Source: Amphiscolops sp. MND2022 | Lineage: Eukaryota | Direction of reading: 5' to 3' | Assembly (NCBI GenBank): GCA_964187785.1 | Contig: OZ076409.1 | Location: 68,450,001-68,514,000 of the forward strand | Length of the DNA: 64,000 bases | In this document: piece by piece, positions 2,285 to 46,063 of the stretch | Layout of the letters: every line of letters starts with the position of its first letter | How positions within the stretch are numbered: position 1 is the stretch's first letter | Notes under the pieces: model-generated | Seen by the model: the letters and a program-made list of their open reading frames with translations, nothing else | Told to the model about the DNA's origin: nothing | Databases searched by the model: none | Translations under genes and position numbers: made by a program

Positions 2285-2302
2285 GACATAGTAACTGCTT
2301 AT

Positions 2303-2548: not shown

Positions 2549-2709
2549 TTTCTTCCCTTCTGGATCTAATTCGGCTATTTTTTCGACGTTCCGGGTGTTG
2601 GGGTTTTCTCTCGGATGAAGTCCGCAGGCTCCTTTGTCAGTGGTTTGGGGGCTTCCTTTCGGCTGGTCCATTTTTCTGCTGTATTGCCTGTAACATGAAA
2701 TTTTTTGAT

Positions 2710-7878: not shown

Positions 7879-7927
7879 TTTCTTTGTTGCAAATAGAATT
7901 GGGTAATTTAAGCTGCTGACTGTGCCT

Positions 7928-8173
7928 TGTTCTATTTCTTGGTTTGGATAAGAAAACAAAAGGTTTTATCTAAAATCTCTCTTTAACTCAAAGTATTGTC
8001 AAACGATCTTTCTCTAACGCAGCTATCTGTATCAAATGATATACTTTTGGTGTAAAGCAATAGTATGGTGTTTACAAACATTTATAAACATAATCTTGGT
8101 AGCTCTAAGAAAGGATCTAAGTTTGATTGACAATGTCACCGAAACATCGGTTCGGTATTTGTACCGTATAACA
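7928..8173 (-). repeat. 5' LTR of element 2303-8173
   Basis: Matches 2303-2548; adjacent to the PBS-like sequence and upstream of the gag start at 7878. Confidence 0.95.
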
Positions 8174-9172
8174 CTTATAAGTTTGAAGTATAATTGCATT
8201 CAACCTATCTGAAGGATACTAAATGCTCACTGGGTAATAAGGTGCTGCTTTCTCGAGACCAAAATTTCTAAAAAAAATCAATTTCCTCAGAGAATTAATT
8301 CTTCACCTATTTTTGTTCAATGAGAAGTTATCGTTTAATCGAAAACGTACTTTTTATAAGGAAAAACTGACATTCAATTTTGAAATATAGTCGATTGACG
8401 TCTCGAAAACGTTGAGAAAAACGCATAAATTAATATTCAAGCAAATAAACATCGAAAGCTGTAATCTAAGAGGCAACTTTTCATCTTATTACTCAGATTT
8501 GTGGCTATAGGCATCTTCCATTCGTTGCTCCTGCTTTATATAATCGAATTGTCGAATCAAGTTGTCGAAAAGTGACAAGCACATGGCAGTCGATGTTTCA
8601 TACATTTTCATGAATTTCATTCTACTGAATGATACATAACAAACAAGCCGTGTTTTAGTTGGTGCTTCCAATGGATAACGCAGACTATAGTGTGGTCTTT
8701 TAAATACCAATCGATCCAACAGTTTTGTTAATAGGTTTGCGAAATTTCTGATTATGTTTTCTCAGCACTTGCCGCGTTGTTTACTGATTAGAAGAGAGCG
8801 TGCCTCGAATGCAGGAGATGGTTGTTCCAATCCCGCCCAGAAGGGAAAATCGTTTTTCATGTTTGCTAGATTTGATTAGGTCGAAGGGTACAGCAGTAGG
8901 GTATTTTAGAGCATTGCTACTTTTACCGAGTTTCTTTTTTTATTCCTATTTGGGTCCTCTATTTGAGTTTTAAACTCAATTATTTGGGACGAAGCGTTTT
9001 GCGAGCCTAAGGGCTCCTCGGTGCACTATCTATTTACTGGTTAAACACTCATTCAATATTATCCAACTTGAGCGAAGGTCGAATTTCGATAAAAAATTTG
9101 ATTGGAAATTCCCATTTCAAATATGAATCGAACTCATACTAAAAACAAATTATATTTCGCCGACAGATGTTC

Positions 9173-15126: not shown

Positions 15127-15467
15127 GTAGGGCTGTTATCCCTTACTAACATTCTTGTAAAAATGCATGCGAACCAGAAAGTAACATACAAGCAAAACAT
15201 AAATCATCCCTTTAAATTACCATTAATTGAGTTCTAAGAATTGTTACATTTGTTATATTATCTAGGATTTTATAATATTATATAGTAATTTGTATTATTA
15301 TCTAGGTATTTGTAATATCATCGTACAAAAAAATAATTATTGACACCCGAGAAAAAAATCAATTTTCATCACGCATTCGTTACAACGGAAACGAACTCAG
15401 CGTAGCGTGATTGATTTTGTAATGATTGAACCAATCTGTCAGATCTATTAGAAACAAAACGGGAACG

Positions 15468-15736
15468 TGTACTGACCTACATTAATAACCAATAGTATTT
15501 AGATGTTTATAGAATGTTCTAGAATGTACATTTATTTGTTATTGAATGATTGTAAATCTCTACTCCCTCAGAGAGAGAAAAATAATAATCAGTATTCAGT
15601 TGACTTCCTTTTTGTTCTACTTCTAACACCTCGAACTAGTTGTAATAAAGTAAGCTAGCTAGCCTGGCTCCCGGCCGCTTTTAGTAGTTGTGTATAAGAC
15701 CAACCAAAGAACTAACCAACCATTAAAAGCAGCTCA
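15468..15736 (+). repeat. 5' LTR of giant element
   Basis: Direct repeat of 33637-33905; contains AATAAA at 15644. Confidence 0.96.
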
Positions 15737-15739
15737 ATT

Positions 15740-15752
15740 TGGTGCGACTTGT
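15740..15752 (+). promoter_or_regulatory. Putative primer binding site (tRNA not assigned)
   Basis: TGGTGCGACTTG lies 3 nt after the 5' LTR; TGG is complementary to tRNA CCA. Confidence 0.6.
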
Positions 15753-17576
15753 AAAATTTCTTGCCTTTTCTCCTAAATGATTTCTCTTCTCTCAACAATC
15801 ATACAAATACCACTCTCCATATTTGAAATTCTCTGGAACTGCAGTGAAATCTTTCTAGCATTCCTTGAAAGTTTAGTCTGTGACTTTCTGAATTTCATCA
15901 ATAAATACATCATCGTTCGAAACACAATTTCTCCACTACAACAATCAACTTAAATATAACAAATTTTCTTCACTACCGGTTTATCACGTTTTCTAACACG
16001 TTGACACGGTTCTTCCTCATGTTCTTTTGCCATACCGGTTTATCACGTTTTCCAATACGTTGAAACGGTTTCATTTCGGACTGATTTATCCAAAGTGACA
16101 CAGTTCTGTTCTCTATACTGATTTATCACAGCTAATCCGGAAGCTTGTTGAAACAGTTCTTTGACGTTTGTCTGGTTTATCAAGGTTTTCTAAAACCTTT
16201 GACACAGCAACTTTCTTCAATCCTGCTATCTTGAACGTCAGGTGGACTCCTGGTGTAATAGTTAATTGAGTGCATGTCCAACTCCGCTCACCTATAAGCA
16301 CATACGTCTCAAGATCAACTTCGTGTTGGCAGAAAACCTGGATTTTCTACTTTTACGTTTCGAATCCACTTTCTACAAAATTTCCTACAAAAAAAATTCA
16401 GAAATAGACTCTGAAAACAAAAAAAGGCAACCAAGACTAACTACAAAAAACAACCACGCACTATTCCATTTCTTTTCCTATTGTCGACAAACAATACAAA
16501 TAAATTCACAAAACTTAAATAATACAAGTAACTTCAAAAAATTTCAATAACCAACAAAAATAACAACACAAAGTACACTCAACCTTATCTCTAGTACTTT
16601 CAATGGTAATAATTTTAACATAATCCTACAAATCAATTATTTTAACAAAATACCACATACAATTCTCACAACTCTTTTGCTTTAAAACTTAAAATAAGGC
16701 ATGTAAATAACACAAACACAGTAAAGTTAGTTTTCTACTTTCAGGCACCCACAATTCCTATCCCCTCCCGTAAGACTTAGCCAATCAGACAGCCTCACCA
16801 GCTTACTCTGATTCTAAGACTGACTAAAAACCTTAGTTAAGTGTAAACGTCTTTAAGGAGAATCGAGAGGACACCGAACTACGTTCGAATCTTCAAAATT
16901 CTCAGAAAGTAAAAGTAAAAGTAAAAGAAACAAAGATCAAACTTTGATCTTGATCAGTATTGATCAGACTTTGGATAGTGGACGTTGATTGTTCAGAGTT
17001 CCACTCCCTTAGTCTTAAAACACACAACCCTTGTTATAATTAAAACAATCTTAGTTTTTCTGGACGTGTCAGTAACCTTATGTTAGACACCTTAAAGTGA
17101 TCCAGACTTAAAATAACATTTAGTTTCTGTTAGCAATCCTTTGAGGTTGAATACAGATCCTACTGCATCCGCTTCTTTCTTCTCTATCCAAAACTATTAA
17201 CTTCTCAAATAACATCAAATTACAATACAAATTAAATGAACCCTAACATATACAACCAAGCAATTTATCCTTTCAACTTTTACATTCCGCCAATTAGCTC
17301 CCTTCAAAACCCTACAGCAAACGATTTTGAAAGATTAATTGAACGATATCAACAATATTTTTTCTTTATCATAAATCAACAACGACATAACCCAAGAGCT
17401 CCAACTTAGAAAATGTCTATAAAAATCAATTGCAACGTTCTCACCTTCACATTATAACATGTGGAAAAAGGTTACCACAGTAGTACTCATTACAACATAC
17501 ACGTTTTGTGTCTTATTTATAGTTTGTGTCCTTCTTGAAAAAATACTTACGGTGATGAGAGACAAACTTTAGAAAA

Positions 17577-20500
17577 ATGTCCTTAACAACAACCTATTTA
17601 CCTTTTCAAACCCCCATCATTAAAAATGCAAAAGTTGTAAAATTAGAACTAAACCCATTCCTACAAAACATTATTTCACATTATACACAACCACTCCCAT
17701 TTGAAAATGAACCACACACAATTGAAACAATCCCTCTTATTAGAGAACATTTGGACACATACCTTTTTATATTAGATACAAAGTTTTAACAATCACCGAA
17801 GAATACCCAACTTTTCAAATCTCCTTTCTTCAACAAAGACTTAATTCATCTCATATATACAGAAGAAAAATAAATCCAATAAACATTCAAGTTCCTATTA
17901 AACAAGTTTTTCATGCTTTTCTAAACAATGTAAAAGACCACAACTTAGCACAGGAAATTCCAAACTTTAGTCCAAATGCACTCGACGATCTTCAACGATA
18001 CATAGACAATTTCGACGCAGAAATTATTGAAAGATTAGTTAATCCTGAAGATAATCCCCATCATTGGTTACAAGCTGATATATTACGAATTCAAAATTTC
18101 ATCTACCATTACTTCAAAGACTTAACATTAAATGACCAAACAATTCCTCAGATCAAAGTAATATCTTTATTTCTCAGAAAATACTTCAGATTTAATTATT
18201 AACTATTATGGTCACAACAAGATCAATCTGCTTTTACAGCATTTCCAGATCATTTTACATTAGAAGAATGTTTACCATTCATCATCAGTGAAAAAAATGA
18301 ACATCCTTACTTTCATAAACCACAATCAATTACAAAACAAACCTTAGATTACATACATTCCGATCCTCTATTAATTACAGAAAATGATCTATTCGCAGAC
18401 AATAGACCTTACCACTATGAACAAAATTCTCAAGATCAACAAAATTTACATTTTAACACTAACAATTCTACTGAAGATGATAACACCGATCAGGAAAATA
18501 CAACCCAACAACAAAATCAACCTGAAAACTATAACGATAATGAGTTTACTACCCAAGAATCTACAATTTCAACACATAATCCATCACAAACAGGGACATC
18601 AACATCAGTACATACTCAATCCTTTAGAGTTCCCACTAGAGTTGTAAACCAAAGACAAACTACAGATAGTCCTCAATCTCACTTAGCTACATCTCCAAAC
18701 CTTAATATAACTTTTAACCTTCCACATACAGATGACACACACGATGAAACCCATGATACATTCCAGGATGATATTCTAACTACATCTAGTGCTCAGAATA
18801 CTTCTGTTAATGTTGCATCTCCAACAAGAACTAATCCTGATTATACAAGATACATTACTCGATCTAGATTTGATCCTCCATCAATTCCCTCCGCCTTTCG
18901 CTCAAACAGATCGACCTCTTCCAACAACAATTTTAATGATAATCCCCAAACTTCCAACCGATATTACGATCCATTTAATTATAACTTTTATCCTCCATCA
19001 AATACAACTACCAATACATATATCAACCAACATCACTCTCAAATTAATACAACTTCAACAACACAAAACCCCTTCATACAATTATCAAATACCAATATTT
19101 CACAGAATATATATTCTCGAAATCAAGGAACCTCGTATCCTTCCACTTCTTATTCTAATATCACACAGGATTCTCAAAGGAGACTTCATAACCCTCCACT
19201 TACACATATACCAACGGATCCTCTGTATCAAATGCATCCAAATCCAAATCCTAACCCTAATTCAAATCCATTACCACAAAATACAATCCAACATATACCT
19301 CCACCACTCACACAACAATTAGCTCCTCCACCCCAATATTTACCAATGCCACAAGATACTTTTATAAACATGTCCGCTTCAATATCAGAACCTATGAAAC
19401 CTTTTGATGGTTTGGACCATTCTTACACCCCCGAAGAATATCTACAACAAGTCGAAGCAAGATTAACCTTCGCCATAGGTGAAGAACCTCAAAATAATCC
19501 TATATAATACAAATCTTGGCATAACAGACGCATGGCTTACATACCATGTTCATTAACAGGAACAGCTCTCGATTGGTACACTAACCTCCATATATCATAT
19601 AAACAACAATGGAATTCTTTTGTACAATTATTCAAAAAACAATTCTCATCTCAAAAAACTGCTTACTACGCTCAAGTAGAAGCTATGTCACTCATGAAAA
19701 AGGATAATGAAACAGTTCGCCACTTCGCCCTTAGAGTACAACAATTAGTAAAAAAAGGGTTGGTGTAATGAAAATGCAGCTACCATAAATCTCAAAAATA
19801 ATGAAATCTTTACAAAAGGGTTACCAAAGAAGTTAAAAAATTTTGCCCATAAACGACAAGTTAAACATGTATCAACATTACTTGAACCTTCAATACCATT
19901 TCATACACTTGTTAGACATGTCGATTCTGAAGATATTGCTAATGAAAAAATTAGAACTAACGACTTAGCTCTAGAAATAAACAAAGTATCGCTTAAGATG
20001 ATACTAACAAAAAGAATTTGAACATGAAGATCAGATAATGGTTACTCAATCTGGAGACCCAAATAACAAAAGCAAACCAGCGTATAGAAAATATTGTTCT
20101 TATTGTCACAAAAATAATCATAGTATTTCAAATTGTTATCAAAAACAACGTGATGACGAATACCAGAAATACAATAACCAAAGATCACGAACTCCTCAAC
20201 AATCCTTTGTACAATATTTTCGCAGTAAACCTAATAATCCTCAAGAAAATCGAAATGACAATACAAATCCTTACTCTTCAGATAATGATCGTAATAAATA
20301 TAATCAAAATTACTATAATGATAGATACAGAAACAATGATAGATATCGTAGCAATAATAGAGAATATTCGCAAAACAACTATAGATCAAACTCTCGACAA
20401 AGATATTATAATCGATCCCGGAGTCCGTATAGATCTCGATTTGATAATTATTATCAAAGAAGAACTCCTTCTAGATCTCCATATAGATCTCCATACAGAA

Positions 20501-20700
20501 ATAACTCAAATTACAGATATAATTCTCGCTCAAGATAAAGATGTCGTTCTCAATCACAAGGAAACTCCTTCAAACGATATAGTTTTCCATATAGATCTCC
20601 ATCAAGACCTAGAGATTTTAGATCAAAATCTAGAACACCCTCAAGAAACAGACAACAAAACAGAATAAATCAAGTAGACGTTAAATCTGCAAAAGAAAAT
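17577..20700 (+). pseudogene. gag of giant element (long N-terminal extension, capsid, CCHC knuckle, RS-rich tail); interrupted
   Basis: Capsid-like PMKPFDG...PEEYL and SLTGTALDWY...ETVRHFALRV; knuckle CSYCHKNNHSISNC; RSRSPYRS repeats. Several point stops and frameshifts. Confidence 0.88.
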
Positions 20701-23700
20701 GATAGTACAAAATTTGAAATTCACACCTGTCAAATAACTGAAATAGCTAATACAATCACTCCTTATAGTTGGTTTTATCCACTATATATTCACGCTTCTG
20801 AAACAAATGATAACATATTACCTTCAAAGTTAGAAATCTTATTCCTCTTAGATACTGGAGCATCCATATCTGTCTGTTTTGAATTTACCAACATTTCATG
20901 TAATTTCCAAACAATTAAACATCAATGTTCCAACTAACCTCCAAAACAAAAGAGCCAAAACTCTTACAGTTGCAAACCAAACTGAAGTACCAATAATACA
21001 TTATATTTCGATGACCTGTTTCACTGAAGTAAATCACAAAACACGATCCTTCAATATCGATTTTGCCGTAGCAAATATCAAATACAACATTCTTGGAACA
21101 CCCTTTTTCGAAAAGCACATCCAAAATATTGATTTTCAACAAAATATTATGACATACATAGAACAACATCCAAAGCTTCCAACAAAAACAACATTTTCCA
21201 CATTTGCAGAAAAAGATTACCCATATATTTCTTACATTTATACTATTAAATGTAAGGAACCAATTCACTTTAAACCAAGGTCAGGAAAAACCATACATTT
21301 CCCAATTAAAAACTATTCAAATCTACATTTTGAACTTTAGGATAATACAAAATTCTATCCAACAAACCCATATACAAATTTCTTACAAAAATTCAAAAAT
21401 ATCTTTCATTTCTTAGATATGATAGTCAATGAAAAAAGCAAAGACTCATGTGCAACCATAACTCAAAACTTTACATCTTACTCAGCTACATTACCACGAG
21501 GAATTATTGGATATATAGAAATACCTATTACTCAAACAACTCCTCGTCACTACAGAGTTAACTATGTAAATTCACCTATTCACTCTGTAATACATGCGTA
21601 TCACCCTGATACCACAACTCCGATTCAACAAAATTCTTATGTAGATATGAACTTATGTACTAGGGTAACACCACAATCCTTATTAGAAAACAAGATAGAA
21701 ATCAACGACAAAACGCTTCAAATTCCTATACCTTCTGTTACTGGAAACCTTCGACCCTCAGATAAAATTCGAAAAGATTTCCCTCCATTACCCTATTCTA
21801 CAGAAAATCAACAATTCATAAAGAAGTTCAATTTTGAATACTCAGATTTAACCGATACAGAATTTGTAAACCTCTGCAATATTCTGAATAATAACCAAAA
21901 TTGTTACGCCGAACATAAGAACGACGTAGGAAAGATTTCTACCCCCTTTCGAATTAGAATAAAAGATAACTGTAAACTTCACACATAAAGACCTTCTAAA
22001 GTACCTATTCACTATAGAGATAGAATAAATAAATTTTTATTAGAACTTGAAAAATACAACATCATAAAACAAATTGGTTCAACAACAGATGAAAAACATC
22101 CTATTGGAACAACATTTTTAAACCCTTTAATTATTATCCCCGAAGGAGACGCAATAAAAGTTGTTTTAGATGCAAGACATCTAAACTCAAACACTAACCA
22201 AGAACTTGAATCTTGGCCTATTGAACCTTTAGCTCCTCAACTAGCTAGAGCCAATAAAAAATACAAATCAACTATTGATCTAATGTATGCATATGCTCAT
22301 ACACCATTAGACGAAGAAACAATTAAACTTACAGGATTTTCATCCGGTGACAAATTATACGCCTTTATCCGTGGATTGTATGGATTAAAAGGACTTCCGA
22401 ACTTTTTTACAAAACAAATGTCAACTTTCTTTAGATCGCTTATAGACAAACGTTCTGCGTTAGTTTATATCGATGATATTTTATTACTCGCAAACGAAAA
22501 ACAAGAAATGTTTGAACTTATAAAAGAATTACATACAATAGCATCTCGAGAAAATCTCAAACTTGCACCTGAAAAATCATTCTACATGTTACTCAAAGTA
22601 AAATTCCTTGGACATGAAATTGGTAACAACACAATTAAACCAATTCCATCCAAAATTGAAGCTATTAAAAGAATTCCATCACCAAAAGAAAAGAAAGATG
22701 TTATGCAATTTCTTGGCAGTGTTAACTTTTATTCAAAATTTATTGAAAAACTTCATATAAACCTTAAACCATTGTATACATTACTACATGATGATGTTAA
22801 ATTTCAATGGACACCTGAATTAGAAAAAATATTTCAAAATGTTAAAAATACAATGACAGCAAACACTGAATTAACAATACCCAACACCACGTATCCATTT
22901 TTCATAATAGTAGATGCTTCGTTAGTAGGTTTAGGCGCAGTCTTATTCCAAATGAACGAAGAAAATAAGATGAAAGTAATCTCTTATAACTCCAGAATTC
23001 TTAAGACACAAGAACAAAAACTTTCAACTTTAGATAGAGAACTTCTTGCAATAGTCTACGCACTGCAAATATATGAATTTTTGATCATTGGATCTCCTCA
23101 TCCTATATACCTCTTCACAGATCACAAGCCTTTACTACATTGTTTCGCAAAGAAAGGAAATCTTAGTCCTAGATTCTATAGAGCACAAATGCAACTAACC
23201 AAATTCTCCAAACTAAAAATCATTCATACCCCTGGAAAAAAATTAACTGTAGCAGATATGCTTTCACGAACCTTTACAAAAGAACAGTTACAAGTACACC
23301 AATTACGACACAAGCAATTACCATCTCAAATAGATTTCTCTATCATGAAAGATAATCAACTCAAACCAGTACATTATTTAGTAAAACATGAAGAAATAAA
23401 ATATAATCAAAAGAATGATTGTCATCCTATCCTTGCTGACTACGGAGACGACCAATTCTCTATCCGTATAAATAACAAAGGAGAAGAAATACACATAAAG
23501 CCTTTAGATTCCTTCACTTTTCAATCTATTGTTCCATTCGAATCAAAATATAAAAAGCCTACAAAAAACCAAGCAAAATCTCTTTTACAACAATCGACAA
23601 TTCTTAATGATACTGGCATTCTTAGTGATGAAGATGAAATAACTCAATCAAATAATATCCAACAACAAAACTCAGACATAGTAAAAGAACACACCCTTGC

Positions 23701-25605
23701 TATACAATATCCTACCAAATCCGACTATTGTAAACAACAAGTTCCATTTTTTGATCCATCCTTTTTCAAATACAAAAAGTATTTTAATTACTTCTTCCTA
23801 CCAGAAGATACACAAATAACCATTGAAACAATAAAAACTCAACAAAACCAAGATACTGTTTTACAAAAGGTTTACCAATGGATACTTAATAATGAAAGAC
23901 CCTTACAAATAGACCCAACAATTGCAGCTAACTCTTTCTTATTAGTATATTACAAAATCTTCAACCAATCATATATTAATCATGATACAAAAACTATCCA
24001 CATAGATTATCCTAATCCTCACGATTCCAACCCGAATCAAAGAGACAAAATATGTCTCCCATTTAAACTTTTCCACGCAGCTTTTGACAAACTTCATGCT
24101 CATGGACATTCAGGAATAAAAATATCCATCAAAGCTTTCAACCAATTTTACTTCATACCGTACTTGAATAAATGGATGTCAATATTCATCCATGATTGCA
24201 TTGAATGCCAACAAAATAAACATATTAACCAAAAATTACAAACTGCATCTATACTAACCTTCTCAGAAAATGCTTCATATTTTAATTACCGAATATCAAT
24301 GGATACAAAAGGACCTATAAACCCACCATCAAATCAAAATTCATACATTCATGTTATAGTAGACGCTTTTAGTCACTTTGTAGTAACAGTACCTATAAAA
24401 CAAAAAAATGGTCAAAACGCTGTTAACTCATTACTACATCATTGGATAAAAAAATTTGGACCTCCTGTACATCTAGTTACCGACCGTGGAACAGAATACA
24501 TTAATTCAGAATTTGCAAATCTTGCACAATGGGAATTAGACATTCACCAAGAACTCCTCATGCACCATGGACAAATGGTTTAGTTGAAAATCAAAACAGA
24601 AATCTTGGAACTCATCTCAGACTTTTCTTACATAACACTCCAGAAAATTGGTCAACCCAAGTTCATATGTATGCTTATGCACATAATTCACAACCACTTT
24701 CTGAAGTAAACTTATCTCCATTTGAAATAGTATTCCATACTATACCCAGAATTCCAATCAACTTTGAACTCAATCTCCAAAGAGATACATATAGAAATTG
24801 TACTTCTCAATATTGTCAAGAATTACCACTTCATACACACTATGACAAATCAAATCTAAACCCTTTCTTTCATAAAATTTTATCTGAACCAATTCCACAA
24901 TGGATCTTAGCTACTGAAACTGCTATGATACAGATATACCATACGGTATACGAAAACACAAAAAGAAAGATTAATTCCTATGCTTATTTTAACAAAACAT
25001 ATCACAATCCAAGACCCTTAGATATTGGTACATTTGTACTAAAAACAAATTTTCTCCATGTTCATTTTTCCGATAAATTAAAACCTCTCAGAAATGGCCC
25101 ATTCAAAATTATTAACAAAATCTCCGACATAACATATGAAAGTGTTAATCAAGATGGTTATACATCGCACATACATAGAAATCATTTAATTCCTTATCAT
25201 CCAAAAGAACCAGTTATTTTTCCTTTCCTACAACAATTTCATCCTCATTTATTTAATGACTGTCATTCAAATATAAACGATCAAATAATTAACTCTGATG
25301 AAGGCAAATTTACTGAAGAAGAACAATTTCCTTCCACAACATCTAAAGAAACGGATATACCATTCACGATTGACTTACAACCAGAATCATTTAGCCAATA
25401 TTGTTCATTTCCATATAAACAAAAAGAACAAATTCCTCAAAATACCTACCTGGATAACCAATCAGATATTCATGACTATGATAACTTTATTAATCCCCGA
25501 AGACACTCCTATAATAGATACAATTTCCGCCCACAACCAAGAAAAGACTACCGACGTTTCCTTGGTGAAAACGATATAATTTCACTTTCTCCAAAATCCT
25601 GCTGA
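20701..25605 (+). pseudogene. pol of giant element (PR, RT, RNase H, IN); interrupted
   Basis: LLDTGAS with DTG at 20851, in the gag frame. YIDD at 22466-22477. RNase H VDAS...RELLA...TDHKPL...ADMLSR. Integrase HGH..CIEC, MDTKGP, TDRGTEY, NGLVE. Stops at 21338 and 21986; frameshifts near 20875 and 24525. Confidence 0.95.
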
Positions 25606-25794
25606 AATACGGAATACAGAAAAAAGCACAAAAAGAAAATTTGAAAGAAAAGCAAAAGTTTGAAGTTTACTGTGAAACTGAACGAAAAATATTTCACAAG
25701 TGATAATAAACGAAAGAAATCGATATGAAACTATAAATACTTTATAAATTGAAACAAACTACCTTAACACAAAGATTTCAAAATTGATAGACAT

Positions 25795-27244
25795 ATTCAC
25801 TCGCCATCATCAACCACAAATAACTCTTCTTCTAGTTCAACATATTCACTCCAAAGATTACCTGAATATACAGCATATTTAAACTCAGATACAGACATAC
25901 TGGATTTCTCATCCTCAAATCCCAGTCCATCCGCTCCATATACTCCTGATAGAGTACCAACAACACCCACCAATACACCTATAACCCAAACTCAAACAGT
26001 AATAATAACAACTCAATCACAACCTGTTTAACGAAATCTAACATTTGTAGAAACAAATTCACCACTTTCTGACTCTAATGATGAAACTCCTACAATACCA
26101 AATACACAAGTTACTTCAAATATTCAAATATTTTAAATAGACCTCCTCTTCCACCGATTACTACCACTCGTTCTATTCATATCCCTGATCCTAGCTCAGT
26201 CCTACAATACATAAATTCTTGTCCACACAAAGTACCAACCGCAACGAAAACAAAAAGAAAAACTCCTTTACCTACATTACCACAAAATCTTGATTTACCA
26301 TCATCAAGTAATACTCCAATAACAGTTTTACCAGAACCTTCATTGAAATCACCAACGAAGGAAACACAGCAACACCCAACTCCTTCACCACCTGAACTAA
26401 GTTCATTCACATTTTCTCAAATATATCCCAAACTTGAATGACAACGTGTACATTCAACCACCACCTCTTCATTAACAGATTTATATCATAAAGATAAAGA
26501 TTCTGACTCAACTGCTAGCACTAGAGTACCAAGACATAATTATAACCTTCGATCTCAACAACAAAGAAATTCTCAAGAATTACAATCTTTAACTAGTTCA
26601 AGTACAAACTCAAGACTATTTCGACAGCACGCCCAACCCAGATTGGACACTTCTTCTCTTTCCTCATCTCAACCCACTATACCATCTTCTCTATCACTGC
26701 CATTTCAAATCACATCAGGATTTGAAACAGCCTCTCTTCTTTCTGAAGAGCCAGTAACTATATCAGATAGCGCAGCTAATTTTTCACGAGTTTACTCACC
26801 TAGTTCAATAGCATCAAACTCTTCCATACAATTACCTGAATATTTTTAGAAGATTTCTCAAGACCTCCATCGCCAAATCCTCACGAATATCCTATTCGTG
26901 TTAATTCAAAAATTGTTCGCACGCTTAACGAAGATCCTCGATACACGGTATTACCTGCAAGATTTATAAACAACAGTTCACTCTCAACTCAAAGAAAACA
27001 AAGAGAACTACGAAGATTACAAGAACAACAACTCACATTAAAATTTGAAGTAGAAGTCACATTCAACTCGTTAGGACCTCATCCATTCTCTCTTTCAACA
27101 AGAGTAGCACACAAAACAACCCCATCACCATTCATAGTCACATCCATTTCTTACCTTTGTGACGCAGATTTACCTGAGATTAGAACAGGACATATACACT
27201 TTTTTAATCCCTACTCCGGACTCAATTATAGATCACTATTTTAA
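25795..27244 (+). pseudogene. Decayed Ser/Thr/Pro-rich accessory ORF between pol and env
   Basis: Frame fragments SPSSTTNNSSSSSTYSLQRLPEY...PSPSAPYTP, DTSSLSSSQPTIPSS..., and a terminal globular-looking part (LKFEVEVTFN...GHIHFFNPYSGLNYRSLF*) that stops 2 nt before the env ATG. Confidence 0.6.
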
Positions 27245-27246
27245 CC

Positions 27247-29824
27247 ATGAACCAAACCACCTTTACCCTATATTTATTATACATAATACAAGTTGTTAAA
27301 TACACATATATAATACACATAGTCCACTCTTTAGTTCACCCTTCAACTGTTCCTAAAGTTGACACCACCAATTCTGAAAATCATATTTCAGACCAAGATC
27401 CTAACATTTTAAACTTGATGGTATCTCATTATGATTGTGCAAAACAAAACAACTTAAGACAATTCTGTTTATTAAATGTAGAACCATGTAAACAAGCACC
27501 CTCAGATATACAACACACAAAAACCCAAGCAACAGTTTATGTTAGAGCAAAAGCTAAAAGAATAAAAGCCTTTAAATGCCAAGCATATTTAAAGACTGAG
27601 AAAGTCTGGTGTTCACAAACATTCACATCTAGTAGACGATATGATCGTTTACAATGGGGACAAAACACATTAGAACTTCCAAAAATATTGGACCCTATTG
27701 AATGCAAAAATATGATGAGATATTTAAACGCGACTGATAGTGAAGAACTAAACAACTACAATATACAAAGTTCTTTCTCATTGTTCGACGATAGTAATTA
27801 TCAAAACACAATTGAACGAATTCAGACACCATTTAGAGTAAAAAAATCAATTACATGGCATATTGGAACCTTCGTATTTGATGAAAATTATCCCGACTGG
27901 ATAGTTAATGTTACACAAAATACATACTCCAGATGTCGATCAGACCGAGAACATTTAATTACCCGACAAAGTTGGAAACTTAGAAATGTTAACACCGCAA
28001 TAGATTATGACGATAAAAACAATCAATTAATACATGACGGACACATATTACCATGTTATCATTCAGACGGATTTTGTAAACCAACGACCAAAACTCCATA
28101 TACATTAACATGGTTTGATGAAAAGTTTTGCCTCATATTTCAACTTCAAGAATTCATTGGTAGAATGACACGAATCAAAGATAGATATTGGATAGAAACC
28201 GATACCTTCATTGAAACTTCAAACATCACACAAAAACTTCAAACCGAAGGAATACAAGGGACAAGATATCCTAATGTAAAAACACCACAATCAAAAGTAA
28301 GCAATCCAAGCCTTTCTCGATTTGAAATGTACCCAATTGCACAAACCTTCTGTTGAAAACCTGAACTATTATTTTCAACACAATATGATGACATCTTTGT
28401 TACATACTTAGATGGTTTTGATATGAACACAGGATTTCCCAAAACCACACTCAATAATTGACCAAACAATTAGTGGAAATATAAAATATGATGATTCAAA
28501 CAAAAGGTATATATTCCCTGCATTGAATATATCAAACAATTTCGCCACTTTAGATTATGATGCCCATATTAATACAAAGATTGATTTCACAATAAATCAT
28601 GTATTTAAATCCATGACAGTACAAGAACTAAACACTCTTCATACAATATGTGAACTGGAAAGAACTCAATTATTAACGATCTTAGCTATGTCAGTTAAAA
28701 ATCCTCAATTAGCCGGTTTTCTTTAAACTGGAAATCGTAGTAACTTTCTCTACGTTGAAGGATCTACAGCATGGCTGTATGATTGCCCTCATTTTATATC
28801 ACCACTATACAAGGCAGACAAATGCTTTGATAGAATTCCTATACACTACAGAGAAACGATAATGTATGTTGACCCAATAACAAGACAAATTTTTAACTTT
28901 GCAACACCAATTGAATGTGGAAATAAGCCACAAAATATAATAGATTTAGATCCAGATTCTAACGACGGAGATTTTTATGTGTTAACACCAGAACCACTTA
29001 AACGAGAAGCACCACAAATGTTTAAACCTACCCAAATTAAAACAACAATCACTCCTAATACATTTACCACCCAAGATGCCGGTATTTACTCAAATGCAGA
29101 ATTAGATCAATTCTGGAATAGAGTACTAATTGCTAAACATTCTGACACAACTCTCCAATTACTTGGAAAATCATTAAGCTATGATTTCATCTCAATGCAT
29201 AATGATAAACACTCATACTCAGGACATAATCCCTATAATCATTTAAGGATTGGAGTACATGACCACTTGTTAAACCTTTTACCACTTTTCAACCCTGACT
29301 GGTTCAGTCAAGCATTCATTAATTTCTTTGGATATCCATGTTATGTTTTAACTCAATGTGGAATTTATTTTTCAACATTTCTTTTCATTAGAGAAGTTTT
29401 AACATTTTTACTCAAATTCTACAGAACAATTAGCATAAAATATAATCTCCAAAGCAACATTTCCATTTTGAGTTCAATAGCCCATGGATTTTTTAATATA
29501 GTTACATCGGAAATGGTAACCGATTTAAACAATACAGGAAAACGAAAACGGATATATACTAAACACAAAATTACAACAAGTGAAAATGATAATATCCTAT
29601 TGCCGGAAAAAGAATTAAACAATAAACGAAGACACTCTGATACTGATTCCCCTTATTTACCTCCTAAATATTCCAGTAAGAATTCAACATTTCAATCACC
29701 GCAAAAGACACACCCAACTAATGTAAACGATATTAATTCTCAGGACTATGACCCAATAATGTCAAATGTAATAGCTGTACCGGAAAGCCCTGCTAAAGTC
29801 TTTATAAAATTCAATCCCTCCTAG
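27247..29824 (+). pseudogene. env-like glycoprotein, class III fusogen (herpes gB / chuvirus G-like); two stops and a frameshift
   Basis: Hydrophobic N-terminus; YDC...LLNVEPC...FKC...WC...IEC pattern; ICELERTQLLTILAMSVKNPQLAGFL-TGN...EGSTAWLYDC...KCFDRIPI...YVDPITR...IEC; GIYSNAELDQF; C-terminal hydrophobic TM segment and cytoplasmic tail. About 860 codons when rejoined across the stops at 28354 and 28724 and a frameshift near 28460. Confidence 0.85.
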
Positions 29825-30280
29825 CTGTAAAGCAATAACTTAAAAAACAAATTAACCTCAGAAAAAGTTCAAAAAATTATCAACTAAATTCTTCTCAGTC
29901 TAAATTTCTAATCAACTAAACTTCATTCAAACCCAAATTCTCACTCGGACCGGTCTCTCCTTTTCAACTTAACAACAAATTCACTTGCTCACCAAAACTC
30001 AACTCTCAACCAGAAGACTTCAACTGGATTTTCAGTCCATCTAAAAGACCGAAATCACAGAAGTTTCTATTCCTGGAATAGATGCCATTGTGATTGTTGA
30101 TGTTTTCAACCCATCATTGACTCAGTATTCCCATATTGTAAGTACAATTTAAATTTCAATATTAACAAACAATTTAATGGATAGGAAAGACATAACAAAA
30201 TTTTTCCCTATTATTAGAAACAATATAATCAAACGTTATAATCATTATTTTAGCTCTATAAAAACACGCAAGTTTAAATA

Positions 30281-31330
30281 ATGGAATCCTTGCCCGAAAT
30301 TGATGTAGTTAACTCTAATCCCTCTGAATTGCTTGCATCCCCTTTGAATATAACTATTCAACAAAATGTTAACGAAGATAATAACTCTTCTTCCAACTCT
30401 CAAGACCCCATAGAAACTATTCCTATTGAACAAGTAGATCATGTTAACGCAAGATCTCAAAAAAGAAAGTACCCAGATATAGCTGCAGATAAACCTTTTA
30501 TGGAATCTGGCGCTTGCCCTCCTTTCATAAAACCAATTAAACAAGATGAAGATAGAGATTGTGAACTAGTTCCTATTCTCTCGTCAAAACACTTCACCTT
30601 TCAATCTCAGTTAACTTCGTTATACATGATTCCAACAAAATATAAATTCATCATCAGAGAATTTAAAAATGATTATCATACATCAATTGCTTCAAAATTG
30701 ATTACCCCATATGATTGGTGGTTAAACAATAAAGTGAAAATTTTCTCACTCCAATACAACTTCCTCAGACCATCTCCATATGATCTTCGAACCGAAGAAA
30801 ATGATGCAAATTTTTTGCCATACCAAATCAAAAAGGCTCACCACATGACTTATCAAAAGTTTCTTCAATATAAAGAGCCCGATACTTATATATTCTTCAA
30901 CTCCAAATATACATCGCCATTCACTTTCAACTCAAAATATTTAATAGATCATACCAAAACAAAAGGAAAACTTAGAAATTATGACCCGCTGAAACAAAGT
31001 TTTCTCTTCCTTCCAAATGATAACCCAAAAAGACCAATCATTGTACCACAAGAATACCTCATTCTGAACGACGATTCGTTACTACAAGAAGATATACCTC
31101 AACATATATCTGATCCTCTTCCTCCACTTCAACATATAGCCTCTCAACCTTTGGGAGACTGTGAAAAATCTTATTTTCACGCAATGACCGAAAAGGGATA
31201 TTCGAATAATGAACTAACTTTTATTATTTCTCATCTGCTTTCACTTCTTACAAATGGAAATCACAAAGAATATAAAAAGGCGAAACAAGAATCGCCTAAG
31301 AAAACCAAAAATGATATTCCTCAACCATAA
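30281..31330 (+). CDS. Unknown 349-aa accessory ORF of giant element
   Basis: Long ATG-initiated sense ORF inside the LTR boundaries. May continue by frameshift to about 31573. No motif recognised. Confidence 0.65.
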   Translation: MESLPEIDVVNSNPSELLASPLNITIQQNVNEDNNSSSNSQDPIETIPIEQVDHVNARSQKRKYPDIAADKPFMESGACPPFIKPIKQDEDRDCELVPILSSKHFTFQSQLTSLYMIPTKYKFIIREFKNDYHTSIASKLITPYDWWLNNKVKIFSLQYNFLRPSPYDLRTEENDANFLPYQIKKAHHMTYQKFLQYKEPDTYIFFNSKYTSPFTFNSKYLIDHTKTKGKLRNYDPLKQSFLFLPNDNPKRPIIVPQEYLILNDDSLLQEDIPQHISDPLPPLQHIASQPLGDCEKSYFHAMTEKGYSNNELTFIISHLLSLLTNGNHKEYKKAKQESPKKTKNDIPQP

Positions 31331-32096
31331 AGTTTTTGCCCAACAGATGAATTACAGAAATATACAGAAATCCTGAAGATCATAAAACCGTACCATCATC
31401 CGAACCGAGATATTCATATAACAATCGCTGAAATCGTAAATACCCTTGAACAAGCTCGAAGCATAATACAAAATATCGTATTTGATACGACAAGAATTAG
31501 CCAATCAGCTTTGTGCATTCGCACATCTTTAGACGAATTCAACTACACTATTGAAAAATTGCATCGATCTTAACTGGTAATTATGGGATAATCACTTTAA
31601 AATTGTTAACACCTATCACTTAATCTCTTAACAACCTGTCAAAATTAATTGAGTCTATACGTATATGCCTGCTATGCACGATTATAAAACATGCTTGATG
31701 TTAAAATACACTTTTAAAATAAAATAACATAAAAAATTTTCAATCACGACATAAAAATTTTCAACAAAATTCCTCAATTGCTCCTCCTTTTATTGGACCG
31801 ATTTCAACAAATAAGTACTTATTTGAAAGATATTCAAATACCCTTCAAAAGACTTTCAAAATACAACAACTTAATTCTTAAAATTAAAAAGTTATAATAT
31901 CACAAAGTTCAATAAAAAAATGTCAACTACGAAATTCTATTTTCAAAGGAACTTTATTGTAAACAAACTAATCTATTTTAGGTGAATATCGTCACAACTG
32001 CTTCTGCAGCATTCCTTCCTCCTCTCAGGTCACCCAATCAAGAAGAACTCCAAAGTATCTTCTACAACTTTCAACGAAATTTTCCCATTCTTCAAT

Positions 32097-32573
32097 ATGA
32101 CAACTATTCATTCTGGCGACATAGACTGCCCGATAGCTCCTTTTCTTTCAATCTCTTCAGCTCGATTGCGATTTTTGATCCTGAAAAAGCATTTAACGAC
32201 ATTAAATGCGCAGCTTAGAACAGTCAAAAAGGCAGACCCACATCTTACAAGGATGATATTGCTTAATATGTTCCAATTATTCCAATTAACAAGAATAAAT
32301 TTCGACCAATATCTCCTTATTCATAAACATCCTGACACTTATGCAACCCAACGAGACGCCACTACCCAAACAGAACATACTACCATCAAGTCCAAACGTT
32401 TAGTACGAAATCTATCCAATAGAATGCGTTCTGAAATGGAAAAACAACGTCTAAATTCTTATTGGCCTTCAGATGATAATGATGATACTGACGAAGAACT
32501 TCAAAAAGACCCTCCAGAAGCACTTATAGATGATAATTACCCGCACAAAACATATACTTACGTTTCTTTCTAA
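32097..32573 (+). CDS. Unknown 158-aa accessory ORF of giant element
   Basis: ATG-initiated sense ORF with helical-looking core and acidic tail; overlaps a decayed upstream frame (31920-32218). Confidence 0.5.
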   Translation: MTTIHSGDIDCPIAPFLSISSARLRFLILKKHLTTLNAQLRTVKKADPHLTRMILLNMFQLFQLTRINFDQYLLIHKHPDTYATQRDATTQTEHTTIKSKRLVRNLSNRMRSEMEKQRLNSYWPSDDNDDTDEELQKDPPEALIDDNYPHKTYTYVSF

Positions 32574-33636
32574 TATCAACAGACGCCATCAACAGCACCC
32601 GTCCACTCCCATCTTCGAATCCCACATCTTCAACGATTGATCGTCGCAGATCAGCACCCGTCTTCAACTTCATCGCCGCCCAACAGTGCCCATCTTCATT
32701 CATCTGCTGACCCTTCTTCATCCATCTTCCAATCTTCAATCGTCACCCATCCAATTCTCCGCCGAAGATGATCGATATTTAATAATAAAGAAAACTCAAA
32801 GAAAAACATTGTGCATGATAACATTTCGAAAAGTTTCAAACTCATCAAATATTTAGAGAATTCAAAACTCTTACCGAAAATATTCACTATGTAGTTATTA
32901 TTTCAAATTTCATCCCCACCCACATTTATTTGCCCAAAAATCCTTTATTCACACCCGTACCGATATTTATTTGCTTTATTTTTAAAGAATAATTAGTAAT
33001 AATTATTATTTTTCGGTGCTATCCTATCCAAAAAATTCACAAATATTATCAATAAATCTTTTCAAATTTCAACAAAACCAGCTCAAAAGTAGATCAAGCA
33101 CATTTTTCAAATCAAATTCGAATAATGACAAACCCAAATTCTTGACGTTTTCAACATTTGTTACATAACAAACCCGCCAAAGTTAATCACAACCTGAAAT
33201 CTTTTCGGACAAATTTCACGCTCGATGGAAAAATTTTCTCTTCTCAACGATATTATTTCAATGACTCTTTGACCTTTAACTCGTATGATGTTTGCTCACG
33301 TTTGTTCAATGCGAAGTTCTTTCGAAAACTTCAACAGAAGCATAAAATTGAGCATCTACCAGTTCAAAAACAAGCCGACGAAAGCATAGTGAAAAAGAAC
33401 ACTTTGACGCTTTTTGAACTGTAGTCGCACCTACGAGGTGTCAATCAAAAATTTGACAATTCGAGGTACATCAATGAGTCGAACTTACACCACTCTTAAC
33501 GAGACTTATGCCAATCATCCATCTAATGAAAAATATTAACTAGCTGAAACGCTAAGAACATTTAAACAAAAATTTTTCTTCATTTCAATTAATGATGCTA
33601 CTTTAAAATTTTATTTTATTTGAAAACTGGGATGGA

Positions 33637-33905
33637 TGTACTGACCTACATTAATAACCAATAGTATTTAGATGTTTATAGAATGTTCTAGAATGTACAT
33701 TTATTTGTTATTGAATGATTGTAAATCTCTACTCCCTCAGAGAGAGAAAAATAATAATCAGTATTCAGTTGACTTCCTTTTTGTTCTACTTCTAACACCT
33801 CGAACTAGTTGTAATAAAGTAAGCTAGCTAGCCTGTCTCCCAGCCGCTTTTAGTAGTTGTGTATAAGACCAACCAAAGAACTAACCAACCATTAAAAGCA
33901 GCACA
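33637..33905 (+). repeat. 3' LTR of giant element
   Basis: Direct repeat of 15468-15736; preceded by the PPT-like tract and followed by TSD AACG. Confidence 0.96.
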
Positions 33906-33909
33906 AACG

Positions 33910-34813
33910 TCTAAAGTTGGCGCTATACCTAAGGCTCAAAAAGCGCAAAGTTTTTAAAATATGCCCAGAACGTTTCAATGAAAACAGTTTCAAAACATTC
34001 AAAGGGTGCCTTTCGTGCTTGGAAAACGCTTCAGAGATCAGATGAAGCGTGTTGAGACAAATACCAGCGCTTTTTGATTCTACGCTTCCTCCTCAGTAAA
34101 AAGCAATATAGTTCGGATACAACGTCAAAAGTTCGGATATAGCGTGCTGGGACAAATGGAGGCGCTTCTTTTCAAACCTCCGCCTCATCCTTTGCAAAAA
34201 GCATTACAGTTCAAATATAACGTCAAAAATTCGAATACAGCGCAAATTTTTTGAACCACCTCCAAATACAAAATTTGGACAGTATTGGAAAAATTATTGG
34301 TGGAACCATATTGAAAAAAACCTACTTTCAGGCCAAAATCAGAATTTTGAAACAGTCTCATAGTTCCGAAAATGAAAAAAGGGGGACCATTTTTGCTTTT
34401 TCAACATTTTTAAACAAAACATTGAAGGGGAACCTTTAAAGACATTTGAAAATTTTTAAAGAAACTCAAAGAAAGGAAAGTTTTGAACAGTCCCATAATG
34501 CCAAAAAATCTGAAAAGGAGATTCTTTCGGATTTTTAGACATTCATTTTGTAGCAAAGTATCAAAAAACTTGAAGGGGGACAATTTGAAGACATTGAAAA
34601 TATTTCAAAAAATAGTCTTATAGTGCCATTGACATGCGGACACTTTCCACTAACTTGGATGCGTTTTCGCTGGCCAGACGTAGCCGGTACAGTACTTCAG
34701 TAGTTTTAGCAGCTTCTGTAAAAATGTGTCCACTACGCATAGATTCTGTTATTGTAACCACTTACTGTAACGGTCGGGTTTTTTTCGTTTAAGGAAAATG
34801 CGCCGACTAAAAA
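33910..34813 (-). mobile_element. HINE-like element interrupted by the giant retroelement (tip at 15453-15467)
   Basis: Rejoining the flanks gives AACAAAACGGGAACGTCTAAAGTTGGCGCTATACCTAAGGCTC, matching the family terminus at 37865 and 14146. The other end, GCGCCGACTAAAAA, is at 34800-34813. Confidence 0.7.
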
Positions 34814-38635: not shown

Positions 38636-39560
38636 GTTGACTTATCCGTTTTTCCGGAGAACCTTTTTGGACTGGAGTGGCTAAGTTTGAAAAACACCAA
38701 GAATTTCGTGAACTCATACAGTGAATACTATTTTGCAAACAACACCAATATTGAATTCTTGGATCTTAGTGGGGTTCATTTGTATCTACTTAGCGCCACT
38801 CTGTTCAACAGTTTGCCGAATCTGAACACTTTGATAATTCAGAATGCCTACATTAGCTATAGCCCCAACGACTGGGGATGGTGCCCTTTTAAAACACTGG
38901 AGCTGCTTAATTTGGCAGGATCCGAATGCTCCAGTGGCTGCGGTTTCTGGAAACTCTTGGGGCAATATTGCAACATTATTACACTTGATATGCGCCAGAC
39001 TAAAGGTTTTAGTTTAGACTTTAATTCTGTTTTCCCGAACGTCACGGAAATTGACCTCACCGAAGCAACGGCGCAAAAGGTTTACATGGAAAATCTGCCA
39101 GAACTGACAAGTCTCCTTTTGACGAGGGCCCGCATTGAAACAAAGTTGACGCTACACAATCTGCCGTCACTGAGCCAGGTTGATTTCACAAACCTCGCCT
39201 CGACTTCGAAATACAGCCCGATTGAATTGATCGAAGTGTCAGATCTCCCTGAGTTGACTACTTTGGATTTTTCCCAACTGAGTTTTGAAAATTTGGAAGT
39301 CTCAAGTTTGACTGCTTTGTCTTCCATCTCATTTGATATGAGTGAAATAAACGCAATAGCGCTATCGGATCTACCTGAAATCGTGAGTTTAAATTTCAAA
39401 GGCAGTAAAATAGGCCAGTTGGCAATGTCCAATCTTCCCAACTTGCGCGGTTTAGATTTGAGTGGGCTTGACATCAACAACATCAATATAACCGGCTTCG
39501 AGTCATTGATTACTGATTTGGGTTTGGAGTATGAGCAGTTTTTGGACGCTACTACGCCAG
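38636..39560 (+). CDS. LRR protein, exon 5 (many LRRs)
   Basis: TTTTAG acceptor in phase 0 and in frame with the 38687 ORF. Repeated LxxLxLxx motifs. Donor CAG|GTTTGG at 39561. Confidence 0.88.
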
Positions 39561-39856
39561 GTTTGGGTGAAAGAATACAATGCTATATTGATCAATAAAA
39601 CATATAAAAATATTTATTTGATTAAGAATTTAAAAGAAAGTTTTTAGCCCACGGCCAGGGAAACAGTTTTCTTGACCAACTGATTGCTTGCCAAATGAAT
39701 TGACTGCCAGCAAAAATGTTGTTGGCTGGCAAATAAGCTTTTCGAAAATTCTGTTTTCTGAAAATTTCTCATTTATGATGTCTTTCGCTTGCACATTATG
39801 GAAGAGAGTGATGTTTAAAACTGTCGAAAATTGACATTTTTCCGTACTTTCTAGAG

Positions 39857-45957: not shown

Positions 45958-46063
45958 TTCCTTGAAAGATCTTGCAAGGAAATGTTTTCCTTGAAAGATC
46001 TTGCAAGGAAATTTTTTCCTTGAAAGATCTTGCAAGGAAATGCTTTCCTTGCAAGATTCTTGA
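45958..46063. repeat. 29-bp tandem repeat (about 3.5 copies) of a near-palindromic unit
   Basis: CTTGAAAGATCTTGCAAGGAAAT(G/T)(T/C)TTTC at 45961, 45990 and 46019, partial at 46048. Confidence 0.9.

Follow-up and report, generated by a model that had tools for sequence, protein, structure and literature searches.

How much of the gene complement of a complex retrovirus can a Ty3/gypsy retrotransposon carry, and keep under selection? This question is raised by a long terminal repeat (LTR) element of Amphiscolops sp. MND2022, located in a 64,000-nucleotide stretch of contig OZ076409.1 (GCA_964187785.1, positions 68,450,001 to 68,514,000, forward strand), which we refer to as the window and whose own numbering is used throughout. 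The element spans 15468..33905 (18,438 bp), and an original prediction made from the letters of the window alone described it as a much larger, multi-accessory enveloped Ty3/gypsy lineage with gag-pol, an open reading frame (ORF) X, env and three further sense frames. Our analysis retains most of this picture, as we consider it likely that the element is a decayed provirus from a high-copy Ty3/gypsy lineage with a gB-like env and a stable set of accessory genes. Env genes of gB type on Ty3/gypsy elements are already known, as are giant and accessory-bearing LTR elements; beside these precedents, the element represents a new and unusually complex form.

The element belongs to Ty3/gypsy (Metaviridae), as LTRs with TG..CA ends, a short target site duplication (TSD), a primer binding site (PBS) and a polypurine tract (PPT) are all present. 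The two 269-bp LTRs differ at 3 positions, AACG flanks the element on both sides, a PBS-like TGGTGCGAC begins at 15740 and a purine tract lies directly ahead of the 3' LTR, all as anticipated. Over nine nucleotides (nt), the PBS complements the 3' terminus of those host tRNA genes that end in TGGTCGCA (11–12 nt in the sister family described below); a genome pattern search for tRNA genes with this ending returned 16 matches vs. 0 in a reversed control, and ARAGORN called a tRNA at two of six PBS-matching loci scanned, namely tRNA-Val(TAC) and tRNA-Met(CAT). Full-length RNA would almost certainly be primed by a host tRNA with such a Met/Val-type 3' end, and then follow the course of reverse transcription and integration known from other members of Ty3/gypsy. 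GC skew is uniformly and strongly negative across the element span, and the flanks have no such skew.

The gag-pol and env frames were likewise borne out, both by the frames themselves and by Pfam matches, with ORF-X between pol and env and further sense frames after env. Gag-pol is arranged as a long N-terminal extension, capsid, one CCHC motif, a protease with DTG, a reverse transcriptase (RT) with YIDD, RNase H, a bridge of ~290 amino acids (aa) and an integrase with an SH3-like tail and without a chromodomain, and the Pfam matches (Retrotrans_gag, RT, RNase H, integrase zinc finger, rve and the SH3-like tail) stand in gypsy order. By Pfam there is a single RNase H-like match in Pol, and the best solved relative of the RT is Ty3 (E 5e-45), ahead of foamy virus (5e-17), MLV (4e-12) and caulimovirus. 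Two segments of Pol stand apart, an insert of ~215 aa between protease and RT (21341-21988), which may, going by its position, be dUTPase-like, and the bridge itself between RNase H and integrase (23200-24070), which has no Pfam match. For reference, gB-type ancient errantiviruses have an RNase H plus a 'mini' domain in the bridge, and a dual RNase H (tether plus new RNase H) characterizes Retroviridae, lokiretroviruses and Odin.

Other copies of the element were searched for in the 1.07-Gb genome, whose host is an invertebrate animal by its mitochondrial COX1 as well: translation table 5 scores best (458 bits, vs. 457 for tables 13 and 21, 444 for table 9 and 436 for table 4). Searching with the LTR returned 1850 candidates, with 40 scored at 97–100% and 8 further LTR pairs among them, and searching with ORF-B returned 2075 candidates, the best 150 of which were at 90–100% identity; these counts are not copy numbers, and indicate a large family. 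Three of the eight siblings align as one block of 18.3–18.4 kb at 96–97%, while the other five comprise three with one private deletion, one with internal duplications and one with several deletions and an 8-kb insertion. Their 4-bp TSDs are perfect in six cases and carry one mismatch in two. Read together, the open stretches of the eight siblings outline a single gag-pol frame, X, env, A and B, along with a variable frame C. The window copy itself is interrupted at no fewer than 16 places, such that gag-pol falls into 11 open pieces, X into 4, env into 3 and A into 2, and is a dead, decayed provirus, in agreement with the prediction that this copy is defective; all nine full copies examined are broken, each at different places. 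Recent activity, also predicted, holds only loosely: the 3 LTR differences correspond to a divergence of 0.56% per LTR (95% confidence interval 0.11–1.63), but the siblings are 1.9–3.3% apart and every full copy examined is broken. The window family is a past burst, now decaying.

Two further sets of copies extend the comparison beyond this burst. An older subfamily, found via a diverged ORF-A protein, comprises 14 partial copies of ~77% nucleotide identity with the order of genes unchanged, and a sister family in the same genome, reached via a distant ORF-A protein, measures 18.8 kb in five of six regions. The sister LTRs (320–339 bp) are 99.4–100% identical in five of the six regions, with 4-bp TSDs and an unchanged PBS core, and the sister family is younger than the window family. 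It keeps the gene order of the window family at aa identities of ~59% in Pol, 44–75% in env, 38% in the X domain and 39–40% in A, while for its B-position ORF (~300 codons) homology to ORF-B was not detectable (E 0.065). Siblings, older subfamily and sister family thus agree on a large, enveloped, multi-accessory lineage. Judging by TSD boundaries, the sister LTRs seem to end in TA rather than CA, and satellite arrays (~185 and ~220 bp) surround two of the six sister regions.

To assess coding status, we calculated dN/dS pairwise between the window and the older-subfamily copies. Values along ORF-X, which consists of an S/T/P-rich region followed by a conserved ~125-aa C-terminal domain, were 0.34, 0.45, 0.23 and 0.15; those for ORF-A, with its disordered N-terminus, conserved core and C-terminal helices, were 0.11 and 0.23; and the open frame of ORF-B gave 0.28. 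For comparison, env gave 0.14–0.16, gag 0.25–0.39 and the integrase tail 0.29. In X, env, A and B, third positions are the most changed and stops occur at 0.15–0.8 per 100 codons, whereas shifted-frame controls gave dN/dS of 0.62–2.5 with 2–11 stops per 100 codons, and spacers carry 3–9 stops per 100 codons in every frame. The pooling of non-independent pairwise comparisons of related copies counts against taking these values at face value; the contrast between in-frame and shifted-frame values is consistent. By these sequence comparisons, X, A and B are under purifying selection.

Of the four accessory ORFs originally proposed, X, A and B (dN/dS 0.11–0.45) are therefore constrained, but the fourth, frame C, was rejected as a gene, with a dN/dS of 0.96, no codon-position bias, and stops and shifts in older copies. 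Its dS is 0.22, vs. 0.5–1.0 in the genes, and frame C is probably cis-acting 3' untranslated sequence conserved at the nucleotide level. It would also fit the view that all of the extra frames arose by nested insertion, or are open merely by chance in a strand that is skewed and poor in stops. The strand is indeed strongly A/C-skewed, with long spurious overlapping frames, such as 18780-19322 (dN/dS 1.26) and 31982-32218 (dN/dS 1.56), both rejected as genes. We nevertheless regard this view as extremely improbable, since X, A, B and the leader ORF u2 (see below) show in-frame purifying selection, are common to three families and have no repeats or TSDs of their own. Because siblings, older subfamily and sister family all keep the order gag-pol, X, env, A, B, the extra frames are neither nested insertions nor absent from sibling copies.

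The identity of env is where the original prediction, which had taken errantiviruses with a baculovirus F-type env as its comparison, had to be replaced. Env matches the Pfam family Monjiviricetes_fusion (PF24664), with E 1.9e-12 in the window and 5.9e-27 in the sister family; this was the sole match, with no baculovirus F-type env family at E<=0.1. We infer a class III (gB-like) fold for env from the PF24664 family and from section 14 of PMC13524379 (statements on papers cited by PMC number refer here and below to the portions of those texts drawn on). By analogy with Drosophila errantiviruses, which pass from soma to germline, Env would probably carry particles across membranes between host cells. 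Two properties of the protein weigh against such transfer: its membrane anchor is weakly hydrophobic (1.4–1.6 in the window and sister family vs. 2.1–2.3 in distant relatives), and a furin motif was looked for and not found. Both would suit a retrotransposon that stays within the cell, with env and the extra ORFs serving membrane targeting or anti-silencing there and no cell-to-cell passage, as would the very high copy number suggested by the 1850 LTR and 2075 ORF-B candidates. We consider this improbable, as env is full-length and cysteine-rich in all families, with a signal-like N-terminus (hydrophobicity 1.6–2.0) and many N-glycosylation sequons. A retrovirus-like agent that remains exogenous and infects horizontally, having invaded the germline more than once and with accessory genes serving as virus-host conflict factors, would in turn be consistent with purifying selection on env as strong as on pol, several bursts of different age, a deep RT clade across unrelated samples and fast turnover of accessory genes. 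Neither a free-virus nor an RNA record of the element turned up, and one DNA run (share 0.05) contained scattered pieces that we do not count as evidence. A near-identical element in another named organism was not found, however, and spread between cells within a host accounts equally well for the conservation of env, so that an exogenous agent also appears improbable to us and passage between cells of the host remains our preferred reading.

The leader upstream of gag had been predicted to look non-coding. This is true of its bulk, which carries no codon signal (dN/dS 0.68–0.94 in three frames) and is 78–93% identical to the older subfamily, but not of u2 (dN/dS 0.11) nor of two more weakly constrained ORFs, u0 and u1. 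For this comparison ten older-subfamily stretches were fetched, two without a leader were dropped and eight were used. In u2, differences by codon position amount to 26/8/50% across these eight leaders; it is highly hydrophobic (2.76) and of full length in six of seven sibling leaders and five of eight older ones, and all four sister leaders contain a 37-aa counterpart, with a score reached by 1 of 2000 shuffles. On this sequence evidence u2 is under purifying selection. The sister leader also encodes a 45–48-aa paralogue, as well as a hydrophobic ORF of 78 aa that overlaps the gag AUG with its stop (4/4). Constraint on u0 is moderate (dN/dS 0.44; 0.24 stops per 100 codons vs. 6–9 in other frames; Kyte-Doolittle hydrophobicity 1.85), with no similarity detected to sister-family leader ORFs, and u1 (dN/dS 0.56) extends to 66–69 codons in four of the eight older leaders.

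Tentatively, u2 might act as a small membrane protein aiding particle release or cell contact, by analogy with known systems; Vpu is a small viral membrane protein. It may be likened to Vpu and to sORF2 of the Drosophila MDG1 group (PMC11952523), just as ORF-A may be likened to the CERV protein of Cer1 (PMC10309623). MDG1 elements carry sORF1 and sORF2 upstream of gag, both small and selected and one of them encoding a transmembrane protein (PMC11952523), and the leader of the window likewise has small ORFs with constraint ahead of gag, one of which encodes a predicted transmembrane protein. MDG1 elements are, however, ~7 kb long and env-less, whereas the window element carries env, and MDG1 sORF2 has ~70 aa, an ectodomain, a basic patch and often myristoylation, whereas u2 has 37 aa and no N-terminal glycine. 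In L080, a distant member of the RT clade described below, a 68-aa pre-gag ORF (L080:5424-5630), which combines a transmembrane segment with a basic tail, lies nearer the sORF2/FAST pattern than u2 does, and has no Pfam match.

We also searched for signals by which the genes downstream of pol could be expressed. An in-frame start AUG for ORF-X is lacking both in the window and in all of four sister copies, and the env AUG sits 2 nt past the X stop in the window, with a gap of 1–8 nt in most copies. Over the ~1.4 kb of the sister X, ATG occurs in all frames together 0, 0, 0 and 1 times in four copies vs. 6.8–7.8 expected; the window X contains 3, five siblings 1–4 and nine older copies 2–4, vs. 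7.5–12.5 expected, and the ATGs found in decayed copies are mostly private. Other genes of the element have 9–25 ATG per kb, and shuffling codons within X yields 6–7 out-of-frame ATGs, and a count of zero came up in no more than 2 of 2000 trials. At the 5' end of X, both the window and the sister family offer near-cognate codons in good context. Rice tungro bacilliform virus has a non-AUG first ORF, an AUG-free stretch of ~895 nt and leaky scanning (PMC3542737), and because the ATG purge in X resembles this signature, we propose that X and env are probably translated from a message with a non-AUG start and leaky scanning. We lean towards a course in which X would start at a near-cognate codon of a subgenomic message shared with env, and ribosomes would leak through 1.4 kb free of AUG to the env start. 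The parallel is an analogy only, as that virus is a plant pararetrovirus, while here the AUG-poor stretch, of ~1.4 kb, lies in front of env.

For the genes after env, splicing is the candidate route. The acceptor AG of the splice-site-like motif upstream of ORF-B is kept in all eight siblings and in 11 of 12 aligned older copies, and in the sister family a YAG stands 2 nt ahead of the AUG of the B-position ORF in 4/4 copies, such that ORF-B would, with fair probability, be made from a spliced subgenomic message. ORF-A could be made in the same way, though here our confidence falls somewhat short of even; an AG 27 nt upstream of its start is conserved in 13/14 copies. Candidate donor GTs in the leader are kept in 7/8 (16242) and 8/8 (16770) older leaders. 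Several observations weigh against this scheme of expression. The readings for X, env, A, B and u2 are drawn from DNA sequence only; a short out-of-frame AUG ORF in X near 26080 is kept in 5/5 siblings and 6/9 older copies; ATG depletion in distant relatives is about half (9–10 vs. 16–17 expected); background conservation of spacer AGs is high, which makes the A acceptor weak; and no strong donor common to the sister leaders was found.

Alternatively, env, A and B might be expressed from internal promoters, or env by stop-restart after X, with X being a spliced second coding exon. Internal promoters drive env in Oikopleura Tor elements (Tor3b/4b; PMC4402516), spacers of 400–500 nt lie ahead of A and B, the short gap between the X stop and the env AUG suits stop-restart, and an AG at 25789, conserved in 7/7 older copies, would suit a spliced X. 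Neither an internal promoter nor stop-restart, however, needs out-of-frame ATGs to be removed over 1.4 kb, no shared AG marks the start of the sister X frame, and the splice-site-like motif at B recurs in three families. We therefore hold this alternative to be rather unlikely, and continue to favor the X-env message with leaky scanning and a spliced message for B. In an RNA-structure scan, 3 of 52 scan positions fell below z -2.5; the best z-score (-3.7) lay in the env-A spacer (30025-30174), near AGs conserved in 14/14 older copies. Three closely spaced ORF-B pairs were considered as spliced retrocopies, and all three proved to be duplications or fragments.

Function searches for the accessory proteins returned leads at best. 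Pfam gave no significant family for X, A, B or the other extra frames, PDB sequence profiles gave no match for the accessory proteins including ORF-X and ORF-A, and one ESM Atlas search was without a hit, while a second returned phage-tail-like clusters (0.92–0.96) with low recognition and inconsistent families, a lead only. AlphaFold models of ORF-A were of low confidence (pLDDT 33, then 43), the second containing a possible small beta-barrel at residues ~203–262 whose weak Foldseek neighbours were Tudor/SH3 domains (E 0.24–0.45), again a lead only. Foldseek searches of PDB and viral structures gave 0 matches at E<=0.001, and VIA-align found generic coiled coils (Z<=6.5). That ORF-A, with a Tudor/SH3-like barrel, might regulate RNA export in the nucleus or counteract silencing is a doubtful proposal from this model, and the pLDDT of 50–58 in the segment concerned counts against it. 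That X and B serve as host-interaction factors is conceivable, and we would not call it likely.

Beyond this genome, an ORF-A profile search returned 332 clusters at E<=0.001, the distant ones 31–49% identical; one close homologue is identical to this genome, so that many of the 332 represent the same organism. RT-RNase H relatives among the matches listed fell at 97%, 72–77%, 45–49% and then <=34%, and the 45–49% group is absent from this genome (best 35–38%). Relatives are encoded at twelve metagenome loci. In RT trees built from search hits only, with 1/123 and 1/38 rows dropped for short coverage, the element falls in a clade of 10/122 rows (SH-aLRT 100) in the first tree and of 15/37 rows (support 100/100) in the second, long-stemmed and apart from other PF24664-carrying polyproteins. 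By these trees, the RT defines a deep, unnamed clade.

Members of this clade also carry ORFs around env. In L073 the order is pol, a 313-codon ORF, env and a 391-codon ORF, with L075 alike as far as its sequence extends, and in L070, an element of ~12.6 kb, two ORFs that are paralogues of each other (35% over 188 aa) come after env. The accessory ORFs of these distant relatives showed no measurable homology to X or A, a point against our main reading; as judged from these sequences, the env-flanking layout is old and the accessory cargo turns over. To the eye, the ORF-A barrel resembled the L070/L073 post-env ORFs, but this likeness failed HMM, shuffle and hhalign tests. The L070 paralogues (L070:9651-12092) have a short beta-rich core and a C-terminal coiled coil, with 7 homologues. 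No relative of env was found in the viral contig collection.

Could the family have been described already, in a repeat library or among the gB-type entries, with only its accessory part unannotated? Chary and Hayashi (eLife 2026, PMC13524379) list 221 entries of Ty3/gypsy elements with a gB-type env, from many animal phyla, and such gag-pol-env elements are thus widespread. Their survey limits of 10 kb for candidate regions and 14 kb for LTR distance, however, exclude elements of this size, the window PBS type is absent from the 7 supplementary files, and we found no discussion of accessory ORFs in the main text of that paper. The nearest named proteins are gypsy-type polyproteins, none above 34% RT identity among the 120 matches listed, and ten ORF-A relatives looked up in ENA records are all without names. 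We found no description of this gene layout in the full-text literature, a search scope that does not include closed journals and Repbase/Dfam/GyDB. An earlier description accordingly seems to us unlikely.

Comparison with known systems places the window element in Metaviridae, as neither an insect errantivirus, nor Burro, nor a retrovirus. Like it, the gB-type ancient errantiviruses have a Ty3/gypsy gag-pol followed by a chuvirus/herpes gB-like env, and are multi-copy elements of invertebrates; unlike them, the window and sister elements reach 18.4–18.8 kb, and no pol-env gene, two post-env genes or leader microproteins are described for that group in the text of PMC13524379 used here. Insect errantiviruses (gypsy/ZAM/Idefix) have an F-type env and a tRNA-Lys/Ser/Leu primer, in contrast to PF24664 and to a PBS that fits tRNA-Met/Val 3' ends, over 9–12 nt only. 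Burro/GYPSM1 of planarians (PMC6431247), at >30 kb and thousands of copies, shares giant size, high copy number, env homology and accessory ORFs, but it reads gag, env and pol, in that order, as one ~4,900-aa polyprotein that also contains BIR/BCL2/MATH domains of the apoptosis/ubiquitin type, whereas the window element has short LTRs, a separate env after pol and accessory genes without known domains. Giant or multi-ORF LTR elements further include Ogre and fish foamy-like endogenous retroviruses (ERVs) of up to 17 kb, and some elements are known to have additional ORFs downstream of env or in the pol-env interval, with totals rarely above 10 kb (PMC6431247). In the foamy-like ERVs and in complex retroviruses, as in the window, size comes from accessory ORFs around env, likely with subgenomic RNAs, but the window RT does not group with retroviruses, in contrast to Retroviridae, lokiretroviruses and Odin (PMC9040795). 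Cer1 of C. elegans has one known accessory protein, CERV, made from spliced RNA and working like Rev (PMC10309623); the window element has several, for which CERV may serve as a model in the case of ORF-A or B. The Tor elements and bdelloid Vesta/Juno/TelKA, which carry ORF3s (PMC5408684), are divergent, gypsy-like invertebrate elements that have env or extra ORFs, with one extra ORF each and no multi-gene 3' block in the passages used here. BEL/Pao elements (Anakin) can carry a chuviral glycoprotein, and no Pao-type family appears among the window Pfam matches.

The multi-accessory layout that was originally proposed holds, but its convergence with complex retroviruses would have precedents in gB-type elements, Burro, Cer1 and MDG1. 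In its strongest form, which we put forward tentatively, a deep Ty3/gypsy clade would have independently evolved the full organization of a complex retrovirus and would still be mobile here, with a class III env, six to eight genes, Vpu/FAST-like microproteins, a Rev-/Tudor-like regulator, spliced messages, an X-env bicistron and fast accessory turnover.

Table 1. Features of the element and its boundaries, in window coordinates
Feature	Position	Strand	Description
Left TSD	15464..15467	+	4 bp, AACG
5' LTR	15468..15736	+	269 bp, TG..CA ends
PBS	15740..15751	+	complementarity to host tRNA 3' ends
u0	15777..15953	+	58-codon hydrophobic leader ORF, moderate constraint
Conserved non-coding leader	15954..17235	+	candidate splice donors 16242, 16770
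u1	17236..17409	+	57-codon leader ORF, weak constraint
u2	17459..17572	+	37-aa predicted single-transmembrane microprotein, stops 4 nt ahead of gag AUG
gag-pol	17577..25605	+	~2,650 codons as one frame at family level
ORF-X	25768..27244	+	~490 codons, between pol and env
env	27247..29824	+	~860 codons, chuvirus/gB-like fusion glycoprotein
ORF-A	30281..31573	+	~430 aa, downstream of env
3' splice-site-like motif	31964..31981	+	branch-point-like CTAAT, pyrimidines, YAG; upstream of ORF-B
ORF-B	32097..32573	+	158 aa counted from first AUG past acceptor; fast-evolving
Frame C	32986..33424	+	not supported as protein-coding
Polypurine-tract-like sequence	33622..33636	+	ahead of 3' LTR; similar in 8/8 siblings and sister family
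3' LTR	33637..33905	+	269 bp
Right TSD	33906..33909	+	AACG

An LTR motif, AATAAA-GTAAGC, was set aside as it is absent from the older subfamily and the sister family. The element is inserted within a copy of a dispersed repeat, D13 (15440-15467, 33910-33940), which has at least three further copies in the window, at 967, 14146 and 37865. Elsewhere in the window we observed two related ~5.9-kb LTR elements on the minus strand (2302-8176 and 46115-52046; 72–78% alike), with LTR pair identities of 96% and 100%. The second of these elements matches gypsy RT, RNase H and integrase and has no frame of env size; a 29-bp tandem array with internal inverted symmetry (45951-46062) adjoins its LTR at 46115 on the outside. 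A degraded LTR element at 55358-61947, with LTRs of ~1.46 kb, matches copia-type gag, Pol_BBD and SH3, and a 320-codon frame at 38636-39598 (+) with a leucine-rich-repeat match (PF23952, E 1e-9) is possibly a host exon or repeat cargo.

Together, these results indicate that env-carrying Ty3/gypsy elements can match complex retroviruses in size and in the number of genes that selection maintains, and that they escape surveys with a size cap. The X domain, the A core, B and u2 are new protein families, and candidates for a role in regulation or anti-silencing on behalf of this abundant genome parasite. An AUG-purged 1.4-kb gene before env would represent a translation strategy for which we found no report in LTR retroelements within the portions of the literature drawn on here. 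More broadly, the finding bears on how frequently accessory-gene complexity arises in the evolution of reverse-transcribing viruses.

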